Source of the DNA: Marsupella aquatica
Lineage: Eukaryota > Plantae > Marchantiophyta
NCBI GenBank assembly: GCA_973895155.1
Contig: OZ316892.1
Coordinates: 19,011,457-19,075,456 of the forward strand
Direction: 5' to 3'
Length of the DNA: 64,000 bases
In this document: positions 1 through 41,623 of the stretch, piece after piece
Layout: every line of letters starts with the position of its first letter
Numbering within the stretch: position 1 is the first letter of the stretch
Notes under the pieces: generated by a model
Database searches by the model: none
What the model saw: only the letters and a program-made list of their open reading frames with translations
Told to the model about the DNA's origin: nothing
Program-made: the position numbers and the translations under genes

Positions 1-106
1 ATTCAGGGAACGTACACTAAAAAACAAAGTTTACATGTAGGGACAGTACACTAAAAAATAGTACATAGTGTAGCATAAATTACATAGCTAGGCCATTCAT
101 TCTTAC

Positions 107-2281
107 CAAACGTTTAGCTGTCGGTGCAGTGCCGGTCCTTCCTGTCAGATTAGGGTTCTGAACACTCAACCTGGCCTCGGTCATCTGTGAACTCTTCTTT
201 TTTGAAGCATCTGTTACAAAATAAGCTACTAACCTTGCCCACACTTTATCATCACAACTGGCTGGTGGAGGCATATCTGGCTTCTCCCCACCTTCCTTCC
301 AAGCCTTATGCATTCTCCACCTCTCTTGCTTGATAATTTTACCTGCTGTACTCTCTAGGCAACCTATGTCCACGCCATCATCACTGCCCACATAATTCCA
401 TTTGGCAGCAACATTTTCACATACAGTCTTCCAATCTTTTGGATGCTGTTTTTTAAAATTAATAACACTCACATCTAACCAACGCAATACTTCAGCTTTC
501 AAATCAGCATGCCATCGGTTCTTGCGAGGACACTCAGCATCCACCCATTGTCTCTCATTCAACTTTACGTTCCCTTTCTTTGTCACCTCCCCTCGTGCAC
601 TGCTCTCGGTAGTACTGGGCGTTGTATTGGCCACCCCTTCATTCACCCTACCTGGGGTTCTGAAGCCACCTGGGAAAATACAATGCCATTCATGCTTGAG
701 AACTACATATAGCAGAATGGATGACGGCAACATTCAATGCTTCACTTCAAGAAAAATTCTTCAAACATACATACCTGTAGCTCTGCCTGTAGATGCCTGT
801 GCAGGGACTGCACTCTGAAATTGTTGCGACCCTGGACCACCTGTCCAGCCTAGTACAGGGGCCGGATGATGTCACTTTCTAGGTATGTGTGTGCAAACAT
901 ATGTACTGAAAACTAAGTACAAACTGTAGGAAAACAACTGAACATTCACCGACATACCTGTCCCCCTTCCGTGCTGCATCTGCATAGGGGCATTAGTGAA
1001 TACTTGAGTCGATGGTTCGACTGTCCAACCTGCACACATACATTTTCTATCATTATACATGTGCAGAGTCCCCCCCACGTGAATGGACTCCACATATAAT
1101 GAGTTCTTCCATTGCTGACAAGATCAGACATTACCTGCTCCTCTTCCAGCGTTTGTAGGTACTGAATTTTGATATCCCTGCCAATTACCTTCACCACCTT
1201 CCCAACCTTGTTCATTCCACGACCCACCACCATCCTCCCAACCTGGTTCAACCCATGTCTGTCCTTGTGGACATTGGAACTGATCATTACTAGCATTTGC
1301 CCAATCAGGTTGGGCAGAATCTGCATGCAATGGCAGGTGGACAGAATTTCATGTTGTCTGAATCCAATACATCCCAAACAATGTCAAAAATTGATATGCA
1401 GTCTGAAATTCAGGAGTGCCATGCCTTCACAAAGAACTGGCATATAGATATATACTCACATCCCCACGGTTGAGGTGGACGTCCATACCCACGAGATTGT
1501 GGGTTTGGACCTGCTCTGCCTCTACCACGGGCATAACCTAGAGCTTGCCCCCTGCCATAGTATTGGGCACCAGCCTGGGATCTACCACTACTACCACCTC
1601 GCCAACCTTGATCAGAGGTCAGCCCCCCCTGCTGGTATGGTGCATGCACAGGCTTCGAAGGCAAAACAGAACTGGCAGGACGCTGCATCACATCACCAAC
1701 TACAATGTCAGGAACTAAGCAAGGTACATATGTGTAGTACTGAACATATGAAACCTCTAAACAAGAGTTTTTAACTCAAAACCTTGTTGGGAAAACTACT
1801 TACATGTTTCTTTTGGGGCTGCTCTGCAATGTATTCATCTTCATAACCCCCATCCTCATCCATTTCCTCTGGAAAATACTCATCATCTGCATCTTCTTGT
1901 CTAGTGTCTGCACCCACCTGTGCAGCATCAATGTCATCTCCACATTCTGCCATTGTAGGTACGACCTTCTTGCTCAACCTGTCACTCCGACGCACAGGCC
2001 CAGAGATAGTGCTGGTCACCCTTCTTGCGTACTCCTTTTGTTTCTTTGAAAATGCTGTGGCTCTGCGACATTCCAATATGAGAATACAGTCACAATTTCA
2101 GTGCCACATTGAACTATTCATGTCACACAAACTCAGCGGAGGGGTGTAGTTGAGAATCGTTCCCTTACAATTCAGCCACATCCTTTTCCAGATCCAGTTC
2201 TGCGATTTTGGCTTTCACGTATGCTCGTTGTTCCATAGCTTTCCTTTCATACTCACACATCTCTGTGTCACTCTGTTCCAT
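107..2281 (-). CDS. CACTA TnpA/TNP1-like (Transposase_24-type) protein, multi-exon, 3' end outside the window
   Basis: The exon at about 107-670 has the Ptta/En/Spm-like motif W-x-x-LVAYF...KKSSQMTEAR...NLTGRTG and ends at a GTAAG donor at 106. Upstream there is a likely start exon (MEQSDTEMCEYERK..., ATG 2281), an acidic exon (about 1805-2070) and several short Gln/Gly-rich exons with canonical splice sites. Internal exon boundaries are approximate. Confidence 0.7.
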
Positions 2282-2437
2282 CCTACTGGACCACAAAAAC
2301 ATGTCATCTATGGTCACCCCGTATAACACAATGCAACCACAATCACCAGGCATCCATCCATACATCTGTGTTGCTTCAGAATTACTTTATTACACATCCT
2401 TCCCCTCACTAATGTCTATGCAAACAATTCACATTAC

Positions 2438-5400
2438 TCATGGCACAGGCACACTGTTGGCATCTGCATCTCTGAATTCGCCTCCTTCAGCAAATGCATC
2501 TACCCTTGTCACAGGAATGAAGTCCCCGCTATCATGAACTACAGGCACTTGGTCTGAACGCCGACGATCAAAGGCACTATGAGAGTGTAAATGAAACTCA
2601 AGGTTTGATCCTTCCATCCGGCGTTGCCTGGCCTGTTTATGACACACTACACGCCAACCTGGGGAGTCTTCCACATCCAGGAAGAAAGCTTGCTCCACCT
2701 GACTAGGAAACACAAATGGCTCAGACCATTCGGGCAATTTCCCTCTGAAATTGGCCAGCAAGAAACCGTCGTTGTCTCTCTTCATGGTAGCCCTGTTACC
2801 AAGCCAATCCTGCCGCACCCATGAACCTTTCATAAGAATCACAGGACTGGACACCGCCCCATAGTCCAGAGCCCATATGTCAACTAATTCTCCCACATAT
2901 CCCATCTCCATCCAGGCCCTGTCGTGATTGTGGCTCTGTTGCTCAAATACAGTGATGAGCCCGCAGTCATTCGTCACCCTGTAGGCACTGTCACCATCCT
3001 TCACTCGGAAGTGATTCCCATATGCTCTCATCCGTTTGTAAGTCTTCACTTTCAGGCTAGGGGCATTAGACAGTAGGTAAACATCTGCATCCATGTCTGG
3101 GTGGGTCTCGTGATGCTCTCTAATTGCCACTCTGATCCACTCCATGAAACCTGGAAAAGTTGTTCCTGCAGTGGGATGGGCCGCCTTCAATGACTCATAC
3201 TCCCTGAACGAACAACCACACAGCATTAGCTTGGGTAAACATGAACAGGCTGAAGGAGAAAACCACACGAACACAACATTTAAGCTCATGAACTGGATTA
3301 TAGCACATGTATGCACTCACTGTATCCAGGGTTCCATCACCACAGTGTTGTGCAATACAAAGTCATGTGCCAAGTCTCTCATAGATATGGTCAGGTTCTT
3401 TGTGGTTGCAGCCCCTTCCAGTACTTCACCTACCACCCCTTCCTCCTCATCAGAATTCCACACCCTGGTCTTCACATGCTCATATTGTGCTATGTATTCG
3501 GTCAGAAATCCCAGAGTCTCATCCTTGATGTAACCTTTAGCCATGCTTGCTTCAGGTTTGTAATATGTTCTCACGTGACCTTTGAGTAGCTTCATGTACC
3601 GTTCCAAAGGGTACAACCAACGAGCACTCACAGGCCCAAATTGGTGTAGCTCTTCCACAACATGGACAAGTAGGTGGGTCATGACATCAAAAAATGCGGG
3701 AGGAAAATAAATCTCCAGGTCACACAGCACCTGAGCGACATCTTCTGTCAGTTGTGGGAAGTGTGTTTCATCCCAAACCTTCACACAAATACGACGAAAC
3801 ACATCACTGAGTCGCATGATCACAGTACGAACAGGCTTCTGCAACAGGCCCCTCAGGCATAAAGGCAACACCTGTTGCATCAACATATGGTAGTCATGGC
3901 TTTTCATACTACCAAGCTTTCTAGTCATGATATGCTTCTTGAAAGCACTGCCATAGTTTGAAGGAACCTTCAAAGAACTCAACCTCTGCACAAATAGTTC
4001 CCACTCTGTGTCTGTCAGAACATAGGGCGCTTGGTACTTCAAGAGCACATCAGCTCTGTGGGCATGTGGCCTCAACCAAAGATGGGGTTTCATTCCCCTC
4101 TGTTCAAGATCCAATCTCACTGAACCAGTGTCTTTCTCTCCACACAAGAATCTGAGTAGACTCTCACAAATATTCTTTTCAATGTGCATAACATCAATGT
4201 TATGTTTGCTTGGCTCAAACTCCTGCATCGTTGCAATGCAAAAGCGTCAGGAAATGCCTCAAGTTTAGTCTCTCTCTTCGAAATGAATGCACATGCTCTG
4301 AACCAAAACATGTATCCCAATTAGCATCAACTCCAAGAGGCTTACCCTCCAGTACTTGAGCTCCAAGTCCAATATGCTCAGTCTTTTTACACCATATCGC
4401 TTTATTGGATCACTCACTCCATCTTCCCTGCCCCCTCGTTTGATATAGTCATCCCTCAGTGCTCCCCACTGCCTGATCTCCTCTTTGGTCACTCGTGCCG
4501 GGGGTCCACGTTGCTCAATCTCATTGCCAAAGTGTGCAATCAGTGCCTGTCTTTCTCTGTAAGGGTGATCTGTCTTCAGAAAACGACGATGGCCCATGTA
4601 TATCACTTTCTGCAGGGCTCTGGAGTACTCACTGGTGACATTGCGCCCACAGATAGTACAAGCACAATATCCTTTTGTTGTTTGGCCTGATATCATCCCA
4701 TGGGCTGGGTAGTCAGCTATAGTCAGAATGACAATGGCTCTAAGGATGAATGGGTTTAACCTCCCAAGCCTCTGTAGGACATCATATGTGAGAACTCCTT
4801 CCTCCCAAAGCTTTCTCAATTCCTCCACTAGGGGAGCCAGAAACACATCTATGTTGGCAGATACAGCACTGTCTGGCCCTGGTATCAGTAGGACCATCAG
4901 AACAAAAAATCGCTTTGTAGTCATCCAAGGAGGAAGGTTATAATTCAAAATAGTTACAGGCCAGCATGAAAATTTGTTGTTCTTGTCTCCAAATGGGTTT
5001 ACCCCATCCAATGACAGCCCAAGTCTGACATTCCTCGGCTCAGCAGCAAATTCGGGATACATCTCATCTATGAGTTTCCATTGCCTTGAATCTGCAGCAT
5101 GTCGTTGTAGCCCATCATCACTTTTCTTGTCAGTTGCCCAAGTCATCATCTCCGAGATGGCACGGCTTCTGAACATCCGCTGAAGTCTGGGAATGAGTGG
5201 AAAATGACGAAGTACCTTGGCGGGAACCATAGACTTTCCTGAGTTCCGATACCTGTGCTTCCCACACTTAGGGCATGTCAACGATTCTTTATACTCCTTT
5301 CTGAAAAGAACATGCCCATCAGGACAGGCATGGATCGAATCATAGTTCAATCCAAGATTAGATATGCATCTTTTTGCCTCGTACATGTTCTTGGGCAAAA

Positions 5401-6169
5401 TATTACCATCTGGTAGCACAGTTGTTCGCAAGAATGCCAACAACTCAGAAACCAAAACGTTGGGGACATTGTGGTTGCCGCAAATGTTCAGGAACATGAT
5501 GACAAATCCCAGTTTAGAACATTTGCTACCGGGGTACAAAGACTTCCTGCCTTCCTGTATTTGCAGGGGAGAGCCAAACATCCCATCATGCCCAGGGGTT
5601 TCCTGCCCTATCTCAAACTCATCAAGAGGCTCTTCGACAGGGGGCACACTTGCATCTGCAGCCGTATCCTCTTCATTGTCCAGCCCATCATGAAATGCAT
5701 CCAAGTCTTGGAAGATGTCTCTCACCATCTCTTCCACATGAATTCCTTCGTCACGTGGTGCTGCCTGAGCACCATCCCGTTGGAGAGCTGACAACCCACA
5801 GAGACCAGCTACAACATTTTCAAATGCACCAGGCAGAACCTCACTTGCCCGTCTTGCAGCATTGGCAGCATCAAATTCTAACCTCCACTCCTCGTCGGAA
5901 GAATCTTCCTCTGCAGGATCATTCCAAACTCGATGTCGTGGATCTCTTCCATGAACCGCGATATGCCGCCAAACCTCATTCAGACCCCTGGTACGGGATC
6001 CTTGGCAGATTGCACAAGGACATCTCATCCTACTGGCTCCTGAAAGTCTGGTTCGTAACCTTTCACGCTGCCAAAGCTTATTATCATGGCGTGATATCCT
6101 TGTGGGATGATGCAAAGGCAGTGCCTGTGCCCTGGGCTGGGTCTGGGGAGGGTGGTGACCAGGGTGCAT
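2438..6169 (-). CDS. CACTA TnpD/Tnp2-type transposase, 3 exons: complement(join(2438..3203,3321..4222,4346..6169)), about 1163 aa
   Basis: Motifs include N-terminal CPCAIC...H, YDSIHACPDGHVLF, CPKCGKHRY, LRHFPLIPRLQRMF, RNVRLGLSLDGVNPF, DYPAHGMISG, HNIDVMHIEKNICE, KSHDYHMLMQ, FFDVMTHLLVH, WLYPLERYMKLLK and EPFVFPSQVEQAFF. GT-AG introns at 4345-4223 and 3320-3204 join the three ORFs in frame with no stop. Confidence 0.93.
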
Positions 6170-6602
6170 TGTAACAGGCTGGGAGCTCTGCAGTCATGGA
6201 CAGCAGTGAACAAGGATGCCTAATGGTGGTATTTGTGTTCCATATATCCCTGACTGTATCTGCCAAAAGAGTTAACATAACGTGTACTAAATTCTCACAA
6301 ACCCTAAACCACCCCAAAAGAAAAAAACAGGTTCGCAAGTAGTGTACCTATTGTCAAGTGAATGACACAAAATTTCTAAATGTTGGAGGGTGTCACCACC
6401 TCCTCCGCTGTCCTCAAATGTACCGCCTCTGCATGTACGTTTACAGTGACACCCCCAGGCAGCAGGAAACAACAATCCGCCAACAGTAAAATAAGCCCAA
6501 CTGCCACCAACCATAACAAGGTACATTAGTTCAAAGATCACATTTATTTCAATGATCTGATTTATACAAAAAAACTTGTGTCCAAACTGATGCTACTACT
6601 CC

Positions 6603-7475
6603 TCACTCTGATTCAGAATCGCTAATGACCCATTCCTCACTTGTTGTCTCATAGTCCTCTCTGTAAGGATCCTGACCCTTCCGTGGCCAGGCCTCAAAAA
6701 GATCATAGTCCATTGGGTTTTGACGCTTCCCAGCTGCTACTGATTCCACAAGCCAAGCATATGAAACCACAAACACATTATGGGACATGACATAAAAGCG
6801 AATGTCTCCCTTCCCAAACTTGCGGCAGGCTTTGGGATATGACTTAGTAATGACATGAGTGGTGTCCTCTGTTATATTCTCCTCCACTGTCCCACCTAGG
6901 TCAAGCACTGTGGACTTGTACACTTTGCACTTAACCTCTCCAATTCCCGCCTCCACAAATACCATGCTCAGCCCTTTCAGAATGGGGGTTGGTTGCTTCG
7001 TCTCCTCAGCCAACATACTCTTCAGCCTTGTAGAGCTCTGTCCTTTGTTGAGTACAGGTCCATATTGGAGATCAGCAAGCCGTGCCTTTGCTTCCCAGAC
7101 TTCTTGTTCAGCCCAAGCTGATGCAGTAGCTTCTTCATCCTCCCACAACTCATATTGCTCAGTATCCTGTACAATCTTATGTGCTATGGAATCTGTGATC
7201 CAAGAGGCCTCAACTACTTTTAGGCCTTGCTTAGTAATTGCAGAATTCATGTAGGACCATGACCACTTCTTTATCACTGATAGCCATGTCCCTGCAACAA
7301 CATGTGTAGTCTCTGGAGTGATGTCCTGAACTACAGTGCCATGGAGCTCAGAGAATCGTTTCTGTACAGTTGGCCAATGCACTTTGGTCAACCCATGCTG
7401 GCCATGGACCAAAATCGCTCTGACCCCTGTAAACACTGCTGGGTGGTCACACTTTCTACGTTTACCAGGCTCCAT
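6603..7475 (-). CDS. Tandem BRCT-domain protein (two Pol lambda/PolX-like BRCT repeats), transposon cargo
   Basis: Intact intronless ORF of about 290 aa (ATG 7475). It has two repeats with BRCT hallmarks: FTGVRAILV...GTVVQDITPETTHVVA...SWITDSI...YEL and LKGLSMVFVEAGIG...LGGTVEENITEDTTHVIT...AWLVESVAAG...YDL. The C-terminal tail is acidic. Confidence 0.8.
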   Translation of the reverse strand: MEPGKRRKCDHPAVFTGVRAILVHGQHGLTKVHWPTVQKRFSELHGTVVQDITPETTHVVAGTWLSVIKKWSWSYMNSAITKQGLKVVEASWITDSIAHKIVQDTEQYELWEDEEATASAWAEQEVWEAKARLADLQYGPVLNKGQSSTRLKSMLAEETKQPTPILKGLSMVFVEAGIGEVKCKVYKSTVLDLGGTVEENITEDTTHVITKSYPKACRKFGKGDIRFYVMSHNVFVVSYAWLVESVAAGKRQNPMDYDLFEAWPRKGQDPYREDYETTSEEWVISDSESE

Positions 7476-8067
7476 GTACACACACCCTACGTGATGACAG
7501 TGAATTTTGGAAGAATGGGTTCACCTGACAATACAAGGACAACAAAATTCCTGCTTTTTGAGTTGATCTGGCCCACTGGTGCTCAGGTCCGATTTTGATA
7601 GGTACAAGGGATATGTGAACAATACGTACTAGGCACCTGCACGGATGCAGGACATTGTTTGAATATATACTACAAAATCCATATCCGTGGTGAAATGAAG
7701 TGCAACCAACTTGTCATGGCACATACATATTTTGTTGTAAAGGAGGATACATTCAATGACAAACTTATAGGGCAATTTGATTAATTGCATGCCTGATAAT
7801 TTATACGCTTACAACTTAGAAGTCCTGTTTTAATTTAGCAGTGTGATGAAAGTGTTTATGAAAATGACCACTCAGCCTAAATACTTCCAAGAAGGCTTGT
7901 AAGGATAAGTTTGTATAGGCATGTACCCAGCCACTGACGCCAGAGCACAAGATAAGTGCTGCCTATATAAACTCGCCTACCCAACTCCTTTTCAAAATTG
8001 GAATCTCTGCAATCTCAAAAAATAGTACATCCACATCAGGTGCACTGTGCATGTACAATGTTCAGCT

Positions 8068-8748
8068 TCACAGCCAAGATATGTGATCTCTCACAGGAGT
8101 GCGCGAGGTAGGATCAATGGCATGGCGATGACAATAAAATATCCATCGATCAACACCATGTGCAGAGTGATCATAGATTTCTCTGTCACAAGCATAACCC
8201 TCTGCTTGATGATCTTTCAGGCAATGATAGTGCCACATAGTGGGACACCTAGCACAGTGGACTATGTCAGTCCAGTAGTCATCATCATGCTCACCACATG
8301 CCTTGCACCTATGAAGTGGGCAAGCTGTGGCATGAGCAGGCAAACACTCAAAACAGAAAAATCTCACACAAAAACGGTCTGGACATTTCCTAACATTTGC
8401 TGCAGCATCAACAGAGCCCTCATAGGACCCCAACTTCCCACACTGTGCACACTTAGCCTGCTTCTCCAAACAATCAGTGCACATCCAGTCTCCCTGGTGT
8501 GTTGACGGGAGGCCCACCCCTGGACAGTTGTTTTCTGCAGCAAGGTCAGACTCCGGGTTGAGGTGGAAATGCCTCATGCAAGGGCCCTCACAAATGACCA
8601 GGCCCCCACCATCGTCACAAATGGCACAACAATGAGCTGCCTTCTGGAAAATCTGACTTGCAGAGAAGTTAGTAGCATCTGCCCCAAGTACACCTGTGTT
8701 TCTCACCTCTGTCACACGCTTTTTGGCTTGAATTTTAGGCCGTGCCAT
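8068..8748 (-). CDS. Stand-alone composite PHD-finger protein, EDM2-like, transposon cargo
   Basis: Intact intronless 226-aa ORF: CAICDDGGGLVICEGPCMRHFH...WMCTDC..KCAQCGKLGS...CPLHRCKAC...CARCPTMWHYHCL...IFYCHRHAID...TPVRDHI. This follows the order and spacing of the EDM2 PHD region as I recall it (CAICDNGG..CEGSCLRSFH...CPLHKC...CRRCPKSYHRKCL...IYCQEHEID...TPVRDHV). Confidence 0.82.
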   Translation of the reverse strand: MARPKIQAKKRVTEVRNTGVLGADATNFSASQIFQKAAHCCAICDDGGGLVICEGPCMRHFHLNPESDLAAENNCPGVGLPSTHQGDWMCTDCLEKQAKCAQCGKLGSYEGSVDAAANVRKCPDRFCVRFFCFECLPAHATACPLHRCKACGEHDDDYWTDIVHCARCPTMWHYHCLKDHQAEGYACDREIYDHSAHGVDRWIFYCHRHAIDPTSRTPVRDHISWL

Positions 8749-8759
8749 GCCTGCGCATG

Positions 8760-8903
8760 AGATAGACTCTACAATTTAGCAGACTGCACAGAAAGTAATA
8801 TATATTTAGCATTTAAGGTACAAAGGCATTTAGATAGACTCTACAATTTAGCAGACTGCACAGAAAGTAAAATATATTTAGCATTTAAGGTACAAAGGCA
8901 TTT
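8760..8903. repeat. 72-bp tandem duplication directly upstream of the PHD ORF
   Basis: AGATAGACTCTACAATTTAGCAGACTGCACAGAAAGTAA...AAAGGCATTT starts at 8760 and again at 8832, near-identical. Confidence 0.95.
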
Positions 8904-9518
8904 GCTACTGCAATGAATTGGAATGGCCACACAAGGATGCAGAGCACACATACTTTTGGTATGTTGAGCCCACACACAAAACTGATCCCCTAATACAATT
9001 TCTCCACCAACACCTCAATTTTAATTGTGGCTATGATTCACCAAAGGAGATCTGCAACAACATTTCATGCATTTGAATCACATACAATAGTCGTGACATG
9101 TAAAACAGGCATTCTTCGAAGAGGATTGGTATGAAGTAGTGTCATAAGGGTTGAAATTTATACATCCTAAATAGGTTATGATAGTGGCTGAGACAAATAA
9201 GTGAGGCATAAATCATTTTGCATATTATCACATGGCCCATTAATTCATTCAACGTTGCAATGTTCACCAGGTTAAAGCAGTCATGAAAGCAGTCTTTCAA
9301 TAGAGACTTTTATGCGAGTTTGCTAGCCTCTTAAATTAGGATATTTTGCTTAGTGCAGGCATAATAGGATATAAGTTATATACTGTTGACCCTAAACCCT
9401 GGACCCAAAATTGCTCATACATCAAAATTTTAAGTAAATATCCTCTGTGTTGAAGTCAGAGTGTTAAGCTATAGGTCAATGGTATCTGGTCTGTGCATGC
9501 GGTGTGACAAGTGGTCCT

Positions 9519-9968
9519 CTAGAGCATGTGATCCAAACATGTGTAGACACCAAAGTCACCGGTGGTGGGGTCTGGGAGGGCAGGACAAGTGACATCACCA
9601 GGCACACTGCAGGATGGCGAGTGGTTCCAAATGATACATTGTGCTCTATGCAAAAATCGGCATCCAAGAGAACGGTCATCCAATTCTGGGCCAGAAGCCC
9701 TACAGGCAGGACAGTCATATTGGCAACTGTGTACACACCCTTGGCACCTAATTTGTGGCGGGTCATGTACAAGAGACACAAATACCAAGGATGTCGGGAA
9801 GGGTACTGAAGCAAGTAGAGGCCGGCTGTAGTTGTTCCTGGAAACAACAGGGTACTCAAAGTACCATGCAGACTGGGCTGGAAGGATCCCAAGTCTGACA
9901 TACTCAAGGCGCAACATCTCTGCCTTGCGTGCAAGTCGCACATGTTCAGCGTTGCGGGTCCTCACCAT
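9519..9968 (-). CDS. Small Cys/His-rich putative zinc-finger (divergent PHD-like) protein, transposon cargo
   Basis: 149-aa ATG-initiated ORF co-oriented with the other cargo ORFs. It has a basic N-terminus (MVRTRN..RLARK) and the ligand pattern CQGC..CQYDCPAC...CRFLHRAQC...CLDH. Confidence 0.5.
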   Translation of the reverse strand: MVRTRNAEHVRLARKAEMLRLEYVRLGILPAQSAWYFEYPVVSRNNYSRPLLASVPFPTSLVFVSLVHDPPQIRCQGCVHSCQYDCPACRASGPELDDRSLGCRFLHRAQCIIWNHSPSCSVPGDVTCPALPDPTTGDFGVYTCLDHML

Positions 9969-10962
9969 AAGTGTTGCTTTTGTTGTGATGTCCTCTGTTC
10001 ACGTCCTTTGATGAGCAAGGTGAGCAGGAGGTCGACTTGCCTCGCCAACAGCAACCACCTAAACTAATCAGTTCCCACTCAACTACAGGTCATAGTATAC
10101 ACATAGCATGAAACGTGCATAGTACATATTTGATTCTGAGTTTATGAGTTTCCTAAGACAAAGAGCTTGGTGATAAACCCATATTCTCGATGGACATGTA
10201 TATCAATCGTATTAAAATCCTGTTTTTTCATCCAGAAAGACCGAAAGTCTCACCTTGCAGGTTGCAGCAGAGAGAAAATTCACTGGTTGTCGTGTTGTGC
10301 AAGTGAACCTCCACTGATGCCCCCGGTGTAGCCCCTCAGATGCAGGTGACACTTACCAACTCCCAAGTTGCCTGGTCTAACAGAAAATGCTTATATCTTC
10401 AGAACTTTATAGAGCAAGTACATGATCACATACTTCTGGATCTATTCATATTTGGAACTCTTGCCAACTACAACTCCCATTATGCACAAGCTCACATCAA
10501 CAGAGAAAGATACAGAATGCATACTTACTAGGCTCTAAGCACCTTCACTACCTTGTTGAACCCAGTCCTGAAGTCTTTTCAGCGTGTTTGTTGTGCTGTC
10601 TCCTTTGGCACCCAACACCTTAGTCCTTGATGTAACAGAATGCAATTTTACAAGTTAGATGCTTTGGAACCTTCTATGGTCTTAGCTGAATTGATGTCAT
10701 CGTAAGTGGTGAAAGACAAGGAAGACGAAAGCTGGTTGAAGAGCTGTAGACAACACACTAGCATGAAGTGCTTCAACCAATCCACTGCCAAACGGAACTC
10801 TTACACAGTCACATTCTTTCAGTAAACAGAAACTCAGTCAAACTTTATAATCAAAGTACAGACTCTGAAGGACCAAAGGAGGATGTTGTGAGTTTCTCTG
10901 TTGTTTAATGTGTTACCCTTCTAGTTTCGAAGTTAGCAAATGCTGAATAATGTGTCTACCAG

Positions 10963-11304
10963 ATCTTCGAAAAGAAGCCCACCACAATTAAGAACTTCGG
11001 TATCTGGGTGAGGTATCAGAGTCATACAGGTTATCCCAACATGTAGAAGAAATATCGTGATACCACATTGAACATCGCTGTAGAGCAGATGTATGATGAG
11101 ATGGCTTCTTGTCATAGAGTTCGGTTCCCTTGCATCCAGATCATCAAGACTACGACAGTCCCTGTCTCTCTGTGCAAGCGAGAAAGTACCAAGCAGTTCC
11201 ATGATTCAAAGATCAAGTTCCCCTTGACGTACCGCAAGATTCAACCTCCATCGCGAAAGCTAAAGACGACTTACAAGGCCACCAAGCCCAACACATTTGT
11301 TTGA
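10963..11304 (+). pseudogene. RPL18A: Captured 3' exon of 60S ribosomal protein L18a (eL20), inactivated
   Basis: Translates [62 protein letters not shown]...[29 protein letters not shown]. There is an in-frame TAG at 11044-11046. It is preceded by an acceptor-like CTACCAG, and I found no N-terminal exons. Confidence 0.92.
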
Positions 11305-12942
11305 GTTTCTAGGTCAGGATGCTTAATATAAGGAAATTCAATTTTCACTTCGTTCCCAGCTTCTACTAATTGAATATACACGAGATGGAAGCAAGAAGAT
11401 AAGCCACAATCTAGCATCTTAGCCAAACACATTCGTCCCGACAAAGCAAAACTACAATCACACAGTGCGAGTTGTGTCTGCACCGGCACCCCCAGTGAGA
11501 CTGATCAGCATTTGGACTGCATCATTGTCTAGAGCTAGCAGTGGAAGGAATCAACATAGCTAGCAGTGGAAGGTGCAGTGGAGATAGCATGGGGACAGGG
11601 AAGGAAATGCAGGTTCCTTAAGCATAAATTTCCAAAAATGGAACAACAGGAAATGAAGAATAGGCACTGAAGCGGTCAACTAGACAAACGTTGTAACAAG
11701 GCAGCAAGCATTGGATTAAGAAGAAGCAAGGTTTCATCAGCAGAAGCAAGGTTTCATCAACAATGGCATTGTGAGACAAACCACTCCTTACAAATTTCTA
11801 CAGACATCCTCCCCACTTGCAGCTTCTCGGCCAGGCTGGATTTCTTGTAAGACAGGTTTCTTGTAAGAAAGATTTCTTGTTTGGTGAGGAAAGATCAAAA
11901 AGCAACTGATCAATGCCTTCTTGTCATCTAGAAGAGCTGGATGCAGCCCTGTCTCACATTTAATGTTAAACTGAATGAAAGACATTATGCGCATGCACAA
12001 AAGAAAGACATGAATATAATTAAGGTAGGTTTTAAGGAGCGGAGTCAGCAGTCAGACTTAGAAAGTTCAAATTGAAGCGCCATTAGTTTGGCGTGGTCAA
12101 GAGTAAATAAATGTTGGTCAGGGATACTCACCTCTTTTGAATGTATTACTGACTCAGCTAAGCCCAGCTAGACAGAAGTCACTCAGACCCACAAAAAAGT
12201 GAAGATCCACCTCCAAGCCGGAGCTCTATCACTTCAGTAGAGCAGCTTCTGGACGGAACCAACTCTAATCAGCCCCACAGAACACAAATGTTAAGGCTCC
12301 AAGTCAGAGCTCACTTCAGCCGAGGTGGACATCGCAGCTAGACCATTCAGTATAGGCAGTATGGAGCCTGAGACTACGCTCATTGTTCAGAATTGAGGTG
12401 ATGAAAGTGAGTTGGCATCAGTGGATACAATGAGAGGGGAAAAAATTCTGACCAAATCACACCTCTATAATCAGAGAGGTTCTATTTCCAGGGAACTCAT
12501 TCATTGACCAGAGTAATATGGCCCACATTTAATTAGACTATGATAGACTCTTCCTCTGCAGACTCAAACTCGAGGAACCCCCACGGATGCCAGCATATAC
12601 ACGAGCTAGAAGCAAGAACACAAGTCGCAATCTAGCATCTTGGCCAAACACATTCTTCCTGGCGATAGTAACTGCAAGCAAGGGGGAGACAGGGAGAACA
12701 AGGAGAATAGGGAGGCAACTCACAATGGAGCTAGGTAGCTCATGATCAAGCAACTTGCAATTGCAGCAACAGTAGTCTTAGTAGCAAGCGATTGAGCTCC
12801 AGGAAATGACAAACCCGCAGCTGAGTCCTCAACTGACAAAATGTTCGCCACTCGACCCTCCTTCCAACTGCAACCGCCAGATAGTAGGAATAAGATAGAG
12901 AGGTTGCAGCCTTCTCAGTGATCCAATAGCACCTCTCTTACC

Positions 12943-13200
12943 ACCTCCGCTCTTAGCACATCCGCTCGCACCTCCGCTCTCAGCACCTCCTTTGGCACCT
13001 GAGCCGCTCTCAGCACCTCCGCTCGCACCTCCGCTCTCAGCACCTCCTTTGGCACCTGAGCCGCTCTCAGCACCTCCGCTCGCACCTCCGCTTGCACCAC
13101 CTCCTTTGGCACCTGAGCCGCTCTCAGCACCTCCGCTCGCACCTCCGCTCGCACCACCTCCTTTGGCACCTGAGCCGCTCTCAGCACCTCTGCTCGCACC
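12943..13200. repeat. GC-rich 57-bp tandem repeat (about 4.5 copies) in the CACTA 5' region
   Basis: TTTGGCACCTGAGCCGCTCTCAGCACCTCCGCTCGCACCTCCGC... recurs at 12991, 13048, 13105 and 13162. Confidence 0.95.
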
Positions 13201-14494
13201 GCCGCCCAAACTGAAGCTACGTAGCAATCCTCAGCAGTGTGTGACAGAAGCACTCCACTCCAGCTCCACTCCGCTCGAGCTCCACTCCAGCTGCTCTCCG
13301 CTCGTAGCTCCTCGGCCAGACCGGCGGCCAGAGCAGCTCCCAAATTGCAGCTCCTGCCCGCCCACAGCTCCTCCCAGTCCTAGAGCTCGTCGTCCACTGC
13401 AGCTCACCTCTCCACTCCGCAAGCCGGTCGCCCTCTCAGCTTGAATGCTCTAGAGCTTTGAAGGTAAACCTTCAAGCTCCAAGCACAAAACTCCCCTACG
13501 CGAAGGAACTGCCCCGATCACGAAGCACACTCCCCACTTTGTGAGACCACGCACAATGTGACAACCTTCAGGCACGACGAATGTCCCCGTAATGGACAAG
13601 TGAGTTTTTCTGAAACAAAACCCTCCGAGTTCCCACGCACATTGAACTGAACTTTGCATTCTGCTGGCGTGTTTAAACCCTAAACAAAACCCGCGCACCC
13701 TAAACTCGTGTCCAAAGGCACACTCCCGCACAAAGCATACCTTAACACTTAGTGACACTTAGTGAACCAAACCCAATGAGCCTCGACCACTTTGCGTTGA
13801 CATGAGCCGTTGATACACATGTTAGTACCCTAAAGCAAATTGGACACGACACTTTGTGAGCAAAGATTAAATGAACGCAACTGTAACCTCTTAGAACGCA
13901 ACTGTAAATTAACCCTTACACATGCCACTTAGGGAGGGTGGACAAAGAATGGGGGCCAGACACTACTTTAGCCCTGAATTGAAAATGATATCACCCCAAT
14001 ATTCTTGTCAAAGTTGCCCATGAACTCTAAGGAATCCATTGAGCAGCATAAGACTTACTATTATAGAGGCAAGTACTCCCATGCACGTTTAATTAGGCTA
14101 GCTAGGATAACTAGCTACAATGCTCTTGACATGAAGACATTTAACTAGTTCTGCAACCCTAAACCCCCATTCCTTCTATGTGCACCTAGTGCTCCCGACT
14201 CCGCAAGTTGCAAGTCAAGGGTTGTAAATGGAACATTCCGTGATGTCTAGAGTGCATGTAATCCTTCTTGCACTCTATTTCAGAATGCCGTAATGGAGAG
14301 TAGCTTATTCAACTTACATATGACTGCCCTACTAGTGTTACAATTGCTACTTTATCAGAAGTTGTAGGAATGACTTTCACAAATATCCCCCAAAAATCAG
14401 TTGATAAAATGTAACAACAATGACTCCCCTAAACTTGGAGTCATGTATTTTTGAAAGTCTCCCTAAAGTCACAAAGCATAGGGTCTCAAAAGGG

Positions 14495-14511
14495 GACGTT
14501 TTCTTCTAGTG
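14495..14511 (-). repeat. CACTA terminal inverted repeat (5' terminus)
   Basis: Plus strand GACGTTTTCTTCTAGTG is the reverse complement of CACTAGAAGAAAACGTC. Short GACACTT/CCACTT motifs cluster subterminally at about 13745-13970. Confidence 0.8.
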
Positions 14512-14915: not shown

Positions 14916-16992
14916 GTTGTTGTGGTGGTGTGCAACAACTCGTGCACTGCACATAGAAATTGGAGGCTAAGATAATAGTCACCGCAACATAGAGTCCAAG
15001 CACAACCAAGTGATAGAAAAAATTATTTTAAAATTTAAATTTTTAGAGAAATTAATATCATATATACATTATTAATACTCAAGTTTTTTCAAACTTTAAA
15101 GTTCTTATCCAATTCTTTAAGTCTCAATTTGAATAATTATTTTTTAATAATATTCAATTTTTTATTTTTTATCTTGGTTGGGTTGAGGTAGGTTATGGGT
15201 AGCTTGGGCAGAGGTAATCCAGATTAATAGAGATATGGATGGATCCTACATTTACAGAAAAACAAATTTTTACTTAAGACCTAGGATTGTTCCCATTTTT
15301 TCTTGAGTTTGTAAATAGTACCATATCCATTTTTAGAGGATATGGTATATCACTTATGATACTCTTGCATACAACTGGGTTAGGTACATTTTTGTCTTTT
15401 GTTCCCACGTTATATTCTTTTTTGTGTGAAAAGTGCATGCAACAGGGTTAGTTACATTTTTTGTTTTTTGTGTACACCAATTGATTACTGTTTGTGTGAA
15501 AAGATTTACTGTACTTTTTGGTTAACACTATATTTAATTTGCTTTTGGTTTTATCCCTTCTATTTATTGGTTACTTCTTTTCTTGGCACTGTATTTTTGA
15601 ATGACGACCACTGCATAAAAAGGCGCAACCTTGTATTATAGTTCTTGATAATGCAAGCAACTCTATGAGTATTAGTCTATGTTGATATTCTCCAACTATA
15701 TCATCAATGTTTTGTTAAGAAGATGTTGCCTCATTAAAACCCTCTCATACTCCTGAGCTGAGAGAAAGAGTACAACCACCTTTTACAGATGTAAATCTAT
15801 CATATGGTAGTAATTATGAGTGTCTAATTATATACTCAAAGTTTAGACAGTTTTCTAATGCCAATACCTTGACAGTGAACTTGGTGTGTGTTGTTGGAGG
15901 TAAAGCCTTTGTAAATAAGTCAGCATGATTATCCTTGCTCGCAATTGCCTTTATGTTGATGTTGTCTCCTTCTTGCTCATGAGTGAAGAAAAACTTTGGC
16001 GCAATGTGCTTGATCCTGTTGCCTTTGATTTTGACACCTATTCAACACATGCAAGGTTGTCTTTGAATAACACTGTGGGTTGGGTTAATGCTGGTAACCC
16101 ACAATTACTATTAATATGGTTAATAATTCTTTGTAACCATATGCATTCTCGACTTGCTTCATATAATGCAATTATTTTGGCGTGGTTTGATGAAGTGCAA
16201 GTTAGAGTTTGTTTCTAAGTGCTTTTCCATGATATTGTTGTAGTTCCGTATAAAAATACATATCCAGTCTGAGATTTGGCATCATCGGGGTCGGATAAGT
16301 TACCAGCATCTGCATATCCTGTTAATGTCAGACCAATGTGATTAGGGAAATATGTCCCATATCAACAGTTTGTTTTAGATATCTAAAAATTTGTTTAACT
16401 CCATTCCAATGGCGTATAGTGGGTTGTGCACTATGTCAAGCCAACAAGTTCACGGCAAAAGAGATGTTGGGTCTGGTCGGGGGTCTGGTTTGGTTAGCTA
16501 AAAACATTAAGGCTCCAATGGCCAATAACTAAGGTTTCTCTGGTCTTTGTGCGTTTTTGAAATATGTCTTTATCTTGATCAAGAGATCGTATCTCCATTG
16601 GAGAGGTTACAGGATGTGCAGAGTCCATATGAAATTGTTTAAATATCTTGGTGGTATAGGTACTTTGGTGTAAGAGTATGCCATTGTCCAAGTGTTCAAA
16701 TTGTAGACCTAGACAGTAGTGGGTTTTGCCCAAGTCTTTCATTTCAAATGATCTGGTTAGCATGTCAAATGTATGTTTAATTAACATTGTGTGTCCAAAT
16801 AGGTTTATATCATCAACATATATGGTGACGAAGATGAATTCTTTATCTTGGTTCTTGATGAATAAGCATGGTGCTATATCTTCATTTATATATCCCATTT
16901 GTAACATCTTGTCTCGAAATCTCTGGTATCACATTCTTCCGCTTTGCTTTAGTCCATATAAAGATCTCATGATTTGGACAACATATTCATCC

Positions 16993-17881
16993 CCCTGGGC
17001 CCTCACTAAGGGAAATGTAATGAGACATACCTGTGACTGAAGGCCCCCCAGGTACCCCTTGTTATATTTTGGAAGAACATTAAAATGTATCTTGTTCGTT
17101 CTAAAAAGAATTTTCAGTCCTATATAAAACTTACCTATGTTATTGTAATCAAATAGATTTGGGGATTTAAGACACCCTCCACTTGTTATAAAAAAAATCT
17201 TTTGCGAAGAGATTCAATCATGAATGCACATTTTATTTAATGTACCATTAAGTGACATGTACACTAAACAAACATATTGCCATATATTATTTGGCAATGT
17301 GTGAAAGCCATTGGGGCTTTAGCACACAAACATCTAATTTCAACTACATACGGGACTGATATCAAAGTTCTCCAGAAGATTCCAACAAAATCTCACTACA
17401 AGACATTAGAGGTGACATTGCACTTAACAAGCCAAAGAAGTCATCCACTACTCCTGTCTGTAAAGTGCCAGACATCTTACTGGGCCACAGATTTTTAATG
17501 TTACTCCATACATATGGGATGGGAGCATCCACTTCTGAAAACTGAGAGCAAATATTACAAATACTGGAATCACCACTCAACACAAACCCATTGGGCTTCA
17601 CTATTGTCCTTCTTGAAATTAGAACCCCCTAATCCACTGGTGTGATGACATGTGGTCCAATGAACAAGTGACGCGTGTCATTAGGTATTACCATGGCCCT
17701 TCAGTTCATTAACTTTGGGACACATTTTAAAAAGCCCTTCACCTCTTCTAATTGGTTGCAAATATAAACAAGGCCCTTGTTGCTTAGAACGGTGTTATAA
17801 TATTATTCACGGATTTGATATTTAATACCCATCGGACGTTTTCATGTATGTTTCATTATTTTGTAAGCTGAGGGCCCAGGG
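16993..17881. mobile_element. Non-autonomous TIR element (889 bp), 13-bp TIR, 8-bp TSD
   Basis: The ends are CCCTGGGCCCTCA (16993-17005) and TGAGGGCCCAGGG (17869-17881). The TSD ATTCATCC is at 16985-16992 and 17882-17889. Removing the element restores the Copia RT frame PLAKDEYVVQIMRSLYGLKQ. Confidence 0.9.
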
Positions 17882-24777: not shown

Positions 24778-27285
24778 ATTTTTATTTTATTTTAAATTAA
24801 AAAAAATTAATGAAGGGAGGGGCAGGCCCCATCAATTAACACCGGAGGGAAAACCTGCCCGGGCAAAAAGACAGAGCAAACACACAAGGAGAGAAGGATG
24901 CCCTAGCTAAGCCCTCCCCTCCCAACCACCAGCCAAAGCCAGCCGCAGAGATCAGTATATCCGTGCCTCATTTCACTAGAAACCAGCCTATGCTCCATTC
25001 TAGTAGAATTAGTTCTATTCCTATGTCTCCTAAATCTACTGTTGTCCTTCAATTGGTTAGAGAGGTGGCTGTTATCCAATAATCCACCATGTCTACTCTG
25101 AACGAACAGGTTAGTTCCATGTGGGCTCGACGACAGAGTCCCACCCAGCCCCGGGTCAAGCACCAAGAGCAGCCAGCTGATTTCATACTCACTCATCATA
25201 GATACCATTATCAGTGTCCTCGACCATTCCCGTCTGTTCCACGATTGGGAGGATGTCCATCAGCTCATGAAGGGTTCTCATGATCTGCCTACTCTTCTTT
25301 GGTGAACTACTGGAGCTAATCATGTGTCTAAGATGTTGTTCAGTCCTATGCAGGATCTCCCTAATCGGGATTTTCCCTAGAGTCTGGTCAAAATGCATTG
25401 CGTTTGTTCCAGAAAACACTGCACATTTCCTTGATCACAATCAGTGGGCCAGGGTTAGTTTTCTGTTTTCTCATTGCATGTTTGATCATTTCCATGAGCC
25501 CCCCCTGCCCCAAGGTCAATCGACGAGTCTTCGAAGTGCTAAGTTGATGCAGAAGTTGCCATCTATGCTGCACATGTGTGCAGCTGAAGAACAGGTGTTT
25601 TGTGGTCTCAGTTTGGGCCCTGCAGCTTTGACACACACCAAAGCCTACCCCAAATTGGTGAAGAACCTCGGGGGGCCGGGGGGGGGGGGGTTGACTATAA
25701 AAAATCTTAGGAATCACGTGCAATCCAAAATATGTATTTTTCATAGAAGTTAGCAAAATTATTAAAAAGCGTAGGAAGCAAAAGAATGCATTATAAACCC
25801 ATATTTGTAGAATATTCTCTAATATATATCTTTTTAAAAGTAAAATATGTCATTAATATTGAAAATAGAGAATAGTTTTTGAATAACATGAATATTCAAA
25901 AACATGAATATTTATAACATGAATGTTCAAAAACCAACGCCCATTAGGATCTCTGAGATCACATAGGGATCAAATTTTCTGATTAGCCATGAACCTGCGG
26001 AGGGCGACCTTGTTTTCATCCCCCAGATTGGTTGACCTGAAATACAGCAGGAGGGTCTGTTCAATCGAGAGCTGTCCGGGAGCTTGCCCCGTCCAAAGCC
26101 AAACTTCAGGAAGGCAGCCTGAGCATCCCATCCTATAAGAAGTGCTCTCAAGGTGGGTGTACCAATCACTTTTAACGACAAGTTCAAGAGGAGCGCCTCC
26201 GGTGGCGTCCAATTGTGCCGTTCCTTCTTGTCTGGTCCAAAGCTCAGGGATTTCCTGATGACAACGTGCGAAAGCTTCACCCAGTCCACATCCGTATTCA
26301 TGATCAACTTCATCACGTGTCTCATCTTAAGTGCCTGGGCTTGCACATTGAACGGGAGGATGCCCAGACCTATCGCTCTCCTCTCTTGAGTGATTGTTTC
26401 CCAACTGTTTGGGGGTAACTTATTATCCCATTCTTGAAGTGCCCCAAAGAAAATTGCGGCTAATCTGCTCCATCTCTTCAGAACCAGCCTGATTTAACAA
26501 CAACATAAGGTGGTAAGTAGGAATGGCCCTAAACATGTGTCTAAGCAGGATTGCTCTACCTGGTAGAGTCAGACTCATTACACACCCAGTGGTTAAGCTT
26601 CTTCCTCATTTTCCCTACTAGAAACCTAGTTTCTTGGGAGGGCATAATCAAATGCCCTATATAGGGCAGCCCAGGTACTCACTGAGTTCACCAGGTCTAG
26701 TGACGACACATCCTGTCCCCTACATCCACTCAAGGTCACTCGGGTCAGATGAGAATCGGGGTATAATTTTAGATTTGTGCACATTAAGCAAGGCCCCCAA
26801 AATTCGTTCATAGTGGTGTATAACCCGTCTGGCAGCCTGAAATTCCTGCTGACAAGCCACTCAAAAAAGTCATTTATCATCAGCAAACAGTTGGTGGCAT
26901 GCAGCGGATCCATCATCCAAAGGAAGCCTGTGTAGTTCCTGGGTATTGAGTTTTTGCTTAAACATCAGCATGAGAGGTTGGGTGGTCAACTCAAAAAGCA
27001 GAGGGGCCAGAGGGCATCCTTGACAAAGTCCCCTTTTCAGACAGAAAGATCGCGTGAAGAGCCCATTGTTGTGGACCTTGGACTGGGTGTTTTTCACCAG
27101 GCCCCTAACAAGCTTGATCACCTACCTAAAGAAATTCATCTGTTTGAGCACCTCCCAAAGGAAGTTGTGTTCAACCCTGTCGTAAGCTTTGGCAAATTCA
27201 AGCTTTAGGAACGTCAACGGTTTTTTATTGAGTCCTGACAAGTCTTGAGCAAGTTTGAAAGTCAGCAGGTTGTCCGTAATGTCCC
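24778..27285 (-). mobile_element. 5'-truncated, decayed L1-type LINE
   Basis: RT motifs RGLCQGCPLAPLLF and HQLFADD (26870-27121) and a zinc-knuckle CQSC...ETTKHLFFSCTHV (about 25570-25650). A T-rich tail on the plus strand is at about 24778-24794. Confidence 0.88.
25667..25930. mobile_element. Truncated end of a CTCGGGG-family TIR element inserted in the LINE
   Basis: CTCGGGGGGCCGGGGGGGG..GACT...TCACGTGC followed by AT-rich sequence interrupts the LINE coding region. No second TIR was seen. Confidence 0.5.
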
Positions 27286-35489: not shown

Positions 35490-38128
35490 TTACATTTCAA
35501 TGATATATAACTATACCAACCAAATCACTTTGTTCACTACCTATGATGTTGTAACAAAAATAAAATTATAAACTCATATTTATAGACTATTATTTAATAT
35601 AAATTTTATAAAAATAGAGTAATAATATTGAATTTTTTTTGTAAAATAGATATATTAATATTAGATTAAAATTGATACCTCAAAATATATATTAAGTTTA
35701 CCATGAGAGGCAAGGAAAGTACTCATCTACAATCCGCATCTGGTTCCTTCAAAGATAGTAGGACACGTGCATTGGGAATGTGCAGGAACAATGTCTGTCC
35801 ATCCCAGCCTTTGTTTCTAGAAATTACATATTATGCCACAAAAATGGGACAATCGAGCACGAACACATGTGCTAATTTGGATTAAGATACGTGGTAACTT
35901 GTGTTAGGGCACAAGTCCTAATTTGGATTACGTTGACACTTGAGACTTTTTCGTTTGCCTCTAAATGGAAAAGGGAGTTGAAAACGCGGTGAAACTGAGG
36001 ACCCCTGGTAGTTACAATCATGCCTTCATTCCACATCAGGAGGATAAGGTGAAACCCAATGACCTCCAGACGAGTCACCAGTACCTTTGTCAGTTTGACT
36101 GTACCCTACTCGAAATGCGGATTTTACAGCTGTCGATCGACCAAAGTGACACTATAACCAGACGGTCATCATTCTCTAACCCAATCCTGCGTATTGGCGT
36201 ATTGCGGAAGGGCTCAAGGGCTACTGTGCTACTCTAGTCTGACCGCAGGGACAGTTATCATGATCAACTGTCACAGTAAGCTCCGGTGGCCGTGCCGGGG
36301 TCATGTAAGCCAGGTGTCGGTCCCATTGTCCACGGTACTGCGAACGGTTGTTGGTCGGGGTTAAACCGGACGGCAGGAAGTAACTGGAAAGACCCAAAGA
36401 CGGCCAACACAGTTCCGTTAGTTCGCTCGAGCGAGCCCCATGGCTCATGACGGCCGGACGGTAGCTTCCCGCCCACCCATTGCGGAGCCCGTGACTACTG
36501 TAGACGGCTACCGGCACCTACAGTAAGTTGACGGGTAGGGTCGTGGGCAACCCGGCTACGTGGAATTTTCCCTGGCGGCGGAATGGCTCCCGTCAACTTC
36601 CCGACGGAGGAAGACTTAAGTGACTTAGTGAATTTTCCACTGCCATGGAAACCGAAGCATCACACCGACGTCCGAGTGGAAGATGAAGATCCAACCGCTG
36701 TGTCGATCGGCGCGGCCGTTGGTGGTAAAGTGGTCATTTTCTGGTCTCATGTGCAGCAGGCTCTGGGAGACGGGCGGGGTTCGAACTCCGGTAGCGTATG
36801 CTACTTGGGTGGGGGTGGCGTCTTGTCCAGAAGCAGAGGATTTCTGCGAGTGATCATTCCTCGTTGGACTATCTCGAGGGCCAAGACGAAAGCAAAGGAA
36901 CAGAGTAACCTAAACTGTGGAAATTGAACAGAGTCTGAAACTATGAGACACGTTAGTTAACTGAGGTTAGTATCACTGCCGTAGAGGGAGTCATGGAACT
37001 CCGTGATCAAACTACGATAAATCTAGATGGGGCGAGAGATGTAAGTACGGATATGGCGTTGTTGGGCCAGTGAGAAGGGAACAGCTGTTGCCCCAGCGCC
37101 GAGCCAGAGGAGCCGCCGACGCTGTTGGACGAACCGAGTGACGAAGCTTTGGGTTTGGGTGTGGGGACTGCTCCGGCGAGTTTCTCTCGTAGTCTCGTGG
37201 CTCTCGAGTCTCTCGACCGTTTCGGACCGAATGGCCGAAAAGTTTGCTTGCGGTGAATGGCATTGACTTGTCACATACTACCGAGTCACGTTACTGCATC
37301 CGCAGACGAAATCCAACCCAAACTCGTGCAAGGCAGGGCAAGGCAAGGAATGCAAGGCATGGATAAGTGATCACGGCATTATTTAAATAAGCAGCCGAGG
37401 AGCCAATCAACGATGCCTGCGTCGGTAGACGTTAGTACAATAATAAGTTGCCGAGTGAAGCAGAGGAATGGAATCTTGAGTTGCTTGCGGATTTCGCACA
37501 GATTGTCCCAGCAGAGAAATGTCCTGCTGTGTAGGCTGAGGATAATTACGATAGGCCTTCCCCGCGGGCTATCATGATCTAGTCTAGCAATTGCTGTGCT
37601 GTACAATTTTATTTTTATTCTTTCTCAATGTCCTCACGGACCCATCGCTCACTTCCTGGCTGCATAAGATCCCAGTGGTCCGGAGTCAGTTGCATCAGCG
37701 CAGTGTGGGAGAGCACTCCAGCGAGGAAATGCGTTCGCAGTAGCGAGCAAGCACGAGATGCGTTCGCAGTAGCAGCCAAGCAAGTAGCTTTCCAGCCGTC
37801 CCACTTGCGAGACTTCATTGCACTCGTGGTACAGTAAAGGGAGCTGCAGTTCCAGTATCTATCATCGTGAGCAGTAGTCAGGAGCGTTTGATCGGTCATG
37901 TTCGATAATTGTGATTGTGGAATTGTGGGTCCCGACTCTCGAGATTAGATCACGATAGTGGTACAGGAATTGTTGTTGTTGGTTCTTCTGTGAGAGTTTG
38001 ACGATAGAGTGTTCAGCAATCTGAGCGAGCAGAATAAGAAGGAACCTGCTTGAGGAGAGGAGAGGAGAGGAGAGAAGTGTTGTTCACCCAATTCTTCAAT
38101 CAGTGGTGGTTCATTGTGATAGCAAACA

Positions 38129-41100: not shown

Positions 41101-41623
41101 CACCCTTGTGTGCAGCGACCAGAGCAGATCCTCTCTGGCCACACATATCGACAAAACTGTTTACGGAAGCTTTGTCACCGTCTTGGCAACGGAAACCGAA
41201 CTCTCTATGCGTGTTCTGGTGAGTACAGCTGATTCAAAGTCAACTACTTTTCTGGAATTGACTTGGTTTCAGCTGTAAAATCACTCTTATGACTGTTATG
41301 AGGATAGTTCTCCTTTCGGACGATCCAGACCCTAGTTTATTCAATTTAACATTTTTGTAATCTGTAGTAACTGGAGCCTGTTCTTCTGATTTGCGTCGAA
41401 TTGTCCCTCATATTTAATGGGCTGTTTTGACATGCAGGTGGATCATTCCATTGTGGAGACCTTTGTGCAAGGCGGTAGGCAGGCGGTGACATCAAGAGTC
41501 TACCCCACGCTAGCTCTCAACGAGAATTCACATCTCTTCCTCTTCAACAATGGAAGCACTCCTATCCATGTTAAGAACTTGGATGTGTACCAAATGAACG
41601 ATGTGCATATGATCACGATTTGA
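38129..41623 (+). CDS. Vacuolar-type acid invertase / beta-fructofuranosidase (GH32), join(38129..38531,38793..38801,39419..40323,40518..40679,40898..41218,41438..41623), 661 aa
   Basis: FHFQPEKNWMNDPNAP, WGHAVSTDL, WSGSAT, FRDPTT, MWECVD (Val, vacuolar type), YASKSFYD and VDHSIVE. The N-terminus has a dileucine EIEAPLL and a transmembrane segment. All introns are GT-AG and the exons join in frame. Confidence 0.95.
38793..38801 (+). other. 9-nt mini-exon ATCCCAATG encoding the DPN core of the invertase NDPN motif
   Basis: Context is ...tgtcaacag ATCCCAATG gtgagc... It supplies the residues missing between WMN (exon 1) and APMYY (exon 3). Confidence 0.95.

Follow-up and report, generated by a model that had tools for sequence, protein, structure and literature searches.

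A conserved tandem-BRCT gene inside a CACTA transposon of the liverwort Marsupella aquatica

DNA transposons are already known to carry captured accessory genes that are under selection, among them Ulp1/KAONASHI and VANC (PMC13317346), and TET/JBP is another such gene (PMC12730594). The closest parallel to the locus described here is offered by KAONASHI/Ulp1 and VANC of the VANDAL (Mutator) elements, where a captured host domain likewise forms a selected, separate gene of an autonomous plant DNA transposon (PMC13317346). Our locus differs in that the element is a CACTA transposon and not a Mutator, and in that its cargo is a BRCT pair together with an EDM2-type PHD protein, both non-catalytic. 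Pack-CACTA transduplicates resemble it in holding host sequence inside a CACTA element, and a captured exon of ribosomal protein L18a (RPL18a) provides a plain example of this in the element studied here. In contrast to such passengers, the BRCT open reading frame (ORF) is unbroken and remains recognisable in homologs down to 54% identity, and the TnpD transposase gene of its element is intact. Among the papers listed by literature searches, none describes a CACTA element with BRCT cargo, and none joins CACTA, BRCT and transposon. The review of accessory genes (PMC13317346) has no mention of BRCT or PHD, nor has the main text of a survey of 962 Spm proteins, whose figures and supplements may list such domains. 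The BRCT ORF is a real, conserved cargo gene that is apparently undescribed.

Within the window, by which we mean the whole 64,000-nt stretch of DNA that was analysed, the BRCT ORF lies inside a CACTA element of more than 14.5 kb. The TnpD gene (2438..6169, minus strand) matches Transposase_21 (E 2e-70) and DUF4218 (E 5e-28); its predicted exons (6169-4346, 4222-3321 and 3203-2438), separated by two plausible GT-AG introns, give a stop-free product of 1163 aa, and many other splice combinations are possible. TnpD is followed by an exon of a TnpA-like gene (80..733, minus strand; Transposase_24, E 1.5e-4, below the gathering score), and the element runs on beyond the start of the window, with its 3′ end outside. 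At the opposite end, the sequence CACTAGAAGAAAACG (14497..14511, minus strand) starts with CACTAG at 14511. A contig from run X1 stops exactly at this position and one from run X7 matches up to it and then continues for 70 more letters; given the terminal sequence and the behaviour of these contigs, we take 14511 to be the 5′ end of the element. A TnpD with both domains and a terminus beginning with CACTA together place the element in CACTA/EnSpm.

The interval from the 5′ end to the BRCT gene holds a 57-nt tandem array of 4.5 copies in the 5′ arm (12947..13205, unstranded), the RPL18a exon, a Cys/His-rich ORF that we call ORF3, and the PHD ORF. A 72-nt tandem duplication also occurs inside the element (8760-8903), and together with the 57-nt array it is a candidate binding array for an element-encoded protein. 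The segment 11374-11438 is repeated at 12595-12659. Many contigs skip 11454-12164 (11453 is joined to 12165 in X1, X4 and X5), which points to length variants of the 5′ arm within the family. A degenerate repeat with a 19-nt period and high read depth (14511-14906) abuts the 5′ end. Elsewhere in the window, we recognised what we take to be retroelement fragments, a Copia-like RT and a LINE-like piece, at 16494-17213 and 25927-26493 (both minus strand), and a further retroelement fragment (48218-48595, minus strand) has an RVT_1 match at 48221-48595. Two intron-containing genes at 38123-41278 and 56213-61125 (both plus strand) are presumably host genes, resembling acid invertase and ispG. To judge from its look, the gene content near the element is that of a land plant.

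The BRCT ORF (6603..7475, minus strand) is intronless and encodes 290 aa from an ATG at 7475 to a TGA at 6603, in the order basic N-terminus, BRCT1, helical linker, BRCT2 and acidic tail. Its first 12 aa are basic, with a KRRK cluster that is found in only two of the three sequences formed by the BRCT ORF and its two homologs, and repeat 1 (7143..7439, about aa 13-111) comes directly after. A 49-aa linker (6996..7142), of which the proximal half is a conserved predicted helix and the distal half is variable, leads to repeat 2 (6696..6995, about aa 161-260), where the helix-2 region (SYPK..RKFGK) is conserved and helix 1 is variable; all three segments are on the minus strand. Pfam recognises BRCT in two stretches (E 2e-13), and each half alone exceeds the gathering score (25.3 and 33.7 bits against 21.3). 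The Pfam search found no family besides BRCT, hence no polymerase or other catalytic domain, and the frame stops after BRCT2. An earlier note on this DNA had described two BRCT repeats, a linker of about 50 aa and no catalytic domain, immediately upstream of the transposase. Both parts of that description are borne out, the second because the ORF sits between the 5′ end of the element and TnpD, with the TnpD ATG at 6169 lying 433 bp past the BRCT stop.

The two repeats appear to have a common origin within the gene. They align without gaps over 90 residues with a score of 96, compared to 25±5 (maximum 45) in 500 shuffles, and the same test in the two homologs gave scores of 75 and 71, where the shuffles reached at most 51 and 54. 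BLASTP between the repeats gave 24% over 99 aa (E 2e-11) at 44 bits, whereas the best match of a repeat to a solved BRCT domain reached 25 bits (HMMER against the PDB, so that the two scores come from different programs). Because the repeats are closer to each other than to any solved BRCT, duplication of one domain is favoured, and the repeats are likely, as judged from sequence, to be duplicates of one captured host domain, as had been claimed.

The same similarity bears on a different origin, in which the BRCT pair was captured whole from the C-terminus of LIG4 and clamps XRCC4. The LIG4 pair has two dissimilar BRCTs on either side of an XRCC4-binding linker, and the long helical linker of our protein resembles this layout. 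LIG4 is also the top PDB sequence match of repeat 1, a weak one (E 0.001), and it comes first in a Foldseek search with the full BRCT model (E 9e-5). However, that model has a pLDDT of 36 and the match an rmsd of 23 Å, so the Foldseek result means little; the AlphaFold2 models are of low confidence both for the full protein and for repeat 2 (pLDDT 40). Since the mutual similarity of the repeats fits duplication instead, we consider capture from LIG4 quite improbable.

We lean instead, at little more than even confidence, toward the N-terminus of DNA polymerase lambda as the putative donor of the BRCT domain: the plant Pol lambda BRCT appears to agree with repeat 2 in the layout of its motifs. 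The resemblance of repeat 2 to Pol lambda had been proposed before. The motifs quoted in its favour are present in the sequence, but no search confirmed the likeness, and no PolX BRCT appeared among the PDB search matches of either repeat, up to an E of 10. The PDB matches that did appear were weak and generic (BRCA1, RTT107, LIG4, Rad4/TOPBP1 and MCPH1). The ESM Atlas returned only generic BRCT clusters for the ORF, all below 0.9, and a word-based search of longer proteins yielded no Pol lambda and no BRCT protein at all other than the two homologs, P0001 and P0002, so that its blank on Pol lambda carries little weight. Among known systems, the N-terminal BRCT of Pol lambda (plant At1g10520 type; human PDB entry 2JW5) would be a close one. 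In Pol lambda a single BRCT is fused to a PolX catalytic domain, whereas here two BRCTs are followed by a stop; the transposon-borne protein has two copies of the domain, no Ser/Pro region and no PolX domain. Both proteins begin with a short basic stretch and pass directly into a BRCT, which measures about 96 aa in the plant enzyme (PMC4444747).

Helix 1 is conserved to a different degree in the two repeats. In human Pol lambda, R57 is reported to be critical and to dock on Ku together with Leu60 and Phe61 (PMC12056208), and the Ku-docking Arg of helix 1 is also described elsewhere (PMC12910108). A helix-1 Arg of the R57 type is absent from repeat 2 in all three sequences, and helix 1 is poorly conserved there, so that repeat 2 is not expected to dock on Ku in the simple PolX manner. 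In the register assumed here, the R57 position would be K, K and T in repeat 2 and H, S and S in repeat 1, while hydrophobic residues would be retained at positions 60 and 61 of repeat 2. In repeat 1, helix 1 hardly varies among the three sequences (WP..QKRFSELHG), which suggests that a binding surface has been conserved on the very helix that PolX domains use.

Pairs such as those of BRCA1, MCPH1 and LIG4 also have two BRCTs in one chain and supply the best, if weak, PDB matches (E 1e-4 to 1e-2). The phosphate pocket of BRCA1 consists of S1655, G1656 and K1702 in the first repeat (PMC10974778). When repeat 1 is aligned to BRCA1, the Gly is kept, but the Ser position holds H, F or Y and the Lys position S, S or T, so a BRCA1-type pocket is absent. 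The 49-aa linker is also longer than the short linker of a BRCA1-type pair, about 22 aa, and the repeats, unlike those of such a pair, look duplicated from one domain. The absence of the Ser and the Lys speaks against a phosphopeptide-binding pair, one of the outcomes that the earlier note had named as contrary to its reading.

How regular a part of the family is this gene? P0001 and P0002 share 60% and 54% identity with the BRCT ORF, match it over its full length from a common start and contain both domains; they are known as proteins alone and could be host genes. Their clusters have 2 and 3 members, from Logan only, and three word-based searches gave no further homolog. A metagenome scan with the BRCT alignment gave no match, and one based on TnpD gave 10 distant loci (30-37%), none with a BRCT, PHD or ORF3 match at E 0.1. 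Across the three BRCT proteins, 53 of the 99 columns of BRCT1 and 44 of the 100 of BRCT2 are invariant; the linker has 10 such columns out of 24 in its helix and 4 out of 25 in its distal half.

Nine of the 11 runs listed contain at least part of 4300-10000, and contigs cover the BRCT ORF in all seven runs examined (X1-X7), which carry four organism codes and five study codes; one of them may be the source of the window, and X6 has very low depth. Summed depth over the BRCT ORF is of the same order as that over TnpD in X2 and X3, and an identical BRCT contig in X1 has a depth of 1799 compared to 376-441 for the 5′ arm of this copy, depth being distinct from copy number in each case. Together with the many variant contigs, these depths indicate a multi-copy family of which the BRCT gene is a regular part. 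Damaged or diverged copies also exist, as suggested by one low-depth X3 contig that lacks 7333-7451, part of repeat 1, and by one X7 contig that diverges at 6477-6685; X7 further has a contig over 6435-7357 with one gap.

Among the best-supported variants (40 of 370 and 40 of 1064, a small sample), six of the eight listed for the BRCT and PHD ORFs together are synonymous, compared to an expected fraction of 0.22 (p 0.002), and two of the three for the BRCT ORF alone (p 0.12). The corresponding counts are 4/5 for PHD, 5/8 for TnpD, 5/10 for ORF3 and 1/5 for RPL18a, with about 0.22 expected. No indel falls inside the BRCT ORF among those listed (12 of 26 and 12 of 141). The BRCT gene could still be a neutral Pack-CACTA passenger without a protein function, spread by hitchhiking, much as the RPL18a exon, with one synonymous variant of five, looks neutral in the same element. 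This is highly improbable given that homologs as distant as 54% identity have an unbroken BRCT frame, that conservation follows the domains, and that even a diverged contig end at 6868, found in three runs, stays in frame in a hand translation and retains the T-H-V and S-Y residues. Homologs at 54-60% identity with both domains, and depths like those of TnpD in several organisms, argue for selected cargo and not debris. The lack of conservation among family copies that would have counted against the earlier reading is not seen, the homologs being full length and the ORF being present in contigs of seven runs.

A second stripped host module, absent from the earlier note, lies upstream of the BRCT ORF. 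This EDM2/NSD-type PHD ORF (8068..8748, minus strand; 226 aa) has two and a half PHD fingers, the last of the C4HC2H type, with ligands that we read by eye as C148, C151, C165, C168, H173, C176, C206 and H209. Two and a half PHD fingers ending in C4HC2H are described as the signature of EDM2 and NSD1 (PMC3776765, PMC7529245), and the likeness of our ORF to EDM2 in these atypical fingers is drawn from those descriptions. Unlike EDM2, the protein is free-standing and lacks the PGR, methyltransferase-like and proline-rich parts; no methyltransferase-like domain was found in the PHD ORF. Its Pfam matches are to three NSD-type PHD families, none of them reaching the gathering score, and human NSD2 is a weak match (E 0.012). 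In the ESM Atlas it falls with NSD-type PHD clusters at 0.90-0.92, and in two of the top three clusters most members of known phylum are streptophytes. The element thus bears two host-type binding modules, BRCT and PHD, each stripped of its enzyme parts. An in-frame PHD-BRCT fusion through an acceptor-like site near 7524 was ruled out, as a stop follows the site; a weaker acceptor-like site lies nearer the BRCT ATG, and a fusion may pass through that one.

Farther upstream, ORF3 (9519..9968, minus strand; 149 aa) belongs to no Pfam or NCBIfam family (NCBIfam matched none of five proteins), and its read depth ranks with the highest over the stretches covered. It is possibly a new zinc-binding cargo. 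The last exon of RPL18a (10963..11304, plus strand) is antisense to the genes of the element and is preceded by an acceptor-like site. In this copy it contains a stop at 11044-11046, which we rejected as a sign of family-wide decay because other contigs read Tyr there.

EDM2 is reported to bind H3K9me2 chromatin and to suppress premature polyadenylation at transposons (PMC7529245), and it alters transposon silencing (PMC3632883). The PHD ORF is a possible anti-silencing gene, and the same role could be extended to its neighbour: in an anti-silencing kit with the PHD protein, the BRCT protein would scaffold base-excision or chromatin factors on methylated copies of the element, and excision breaks would play no part. 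The BRCT ORF does lie directly downstream of a conserved PHD ORF (four of its five listed variants synonymous). Anti-silencing by Spm TnpA is reported to require ROS1/DML base-excision demethylation (preprint 10.64898/2026.08.24.746577), and a part in base-excision repair has been suggested for plant Pol lambda (PMC10787897). The element (80-9998) is also CpG-depleted, at 0.23-0.42 compared to 0.61-0.69 in two host-gene regions, with CHG undepleted at 1.04-1.16. Yet adjacency is the sole link between the two proteins, and depth over the PHD region is several-fold higher than over BRCT in X2, X4, X5 and X7, so the PHD gene may also occur without BRCT. The BRCT protein, moreover, has no phosphopeptide pocket with which to read a histone mark. 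We consider a joint anti-silencing role unlikely.

The reading that we prefer, tentatively and at somewhat less than even confidence, is that the BRCT protein is a bivalent adaptor or decoy, devoid of enzyme activity, to which the break-repair proteins of the host bind where the transposase has cut. In this scheme, one host BRCT domain would have been captured and then duplicated to give a conserved accessory gene of the CACTA family. The protein, presumably nuclear, would bind factors of non-homologous end joining (NHEJ), either XRCC4-LIG4 or Ku, and more likely through repeat 1, which we favour because its helix 1 is almost invariant. Having no polymerase, it would compete with host Pol lambda or LIG4. 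Such competition could shift repair of the donor site toward templated repair and so restore the donor copy, which is the weakest step; it is nearly as likely that the protein would act in the other direction, recruiting NHEJ and making excision less toxic. Blocking NHEJ might raise copy number, as the earlier note suggested.

Precedents for parts of this scheme come from Pol lambda. The Arabidopsis enzyme is reported to have a 13-aa NLS followed by a 96-aa BRCT at its N-terminus (PMC4444747); its BRCT binds LIG4 and XRCC4, and the enzyme has been implicated in the repair of transposon excision sites (both as cited in PMC4444747). In human Pol lambda, a catalytically dead form has a dominant-negative effect that depends on the binding of its BRCT to Ku (PMC12056208). 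In the element itself, we count in favour of an adaptor or decoy the two BRCTs with no other domain and the weak top match of repeat 1 to LIG4, and against it the failure to find a PolX BRCT and the variable helix 1 of repeat 2, which lacks the Arg. BRCT domains have many partners besides NHEJ factors. The gene could encode a selected binding module for a partner such as TnpD, TnpA or a host factor of target choice, with no role in repair: drift in both the PolX Ku motif and the phosphate pocket, next to other surfaces that are invariant, suggests that the protein has found a new partner. We judge this unlikely and retain the adaptor or decoy as our working model.

It is tempting to combine the two modules into a host-control kit of the CACTA family's own, in which a duplicated Pol lambda BRCT hijacks or blocks end joining at the element's own breaks and an EDM2-type PHD protein engages H3K9me2 chromatin, though we think it rather unlikely that both halves hold. 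If true, a eukaryotic cut-and-paste transposon would here encode a protein dedicated to modulating the choice of repair pathway. Gene targeting could also profit from a small NHEJ modulator of plant origin, should the protein prove to be one. Cut-and-paste transposons gain copies only through refilling of the donor site or movement during replication, and the choice of repair pathway is usually left to the host in accounts of the process. With a BRCT protein encoded by the element, one can test whether the transposon itself steers that choice; the gene also widens the range of transposon counter-defence genes from epigenetic silencing, the province of VANC and Ulp1, to DNA repair.
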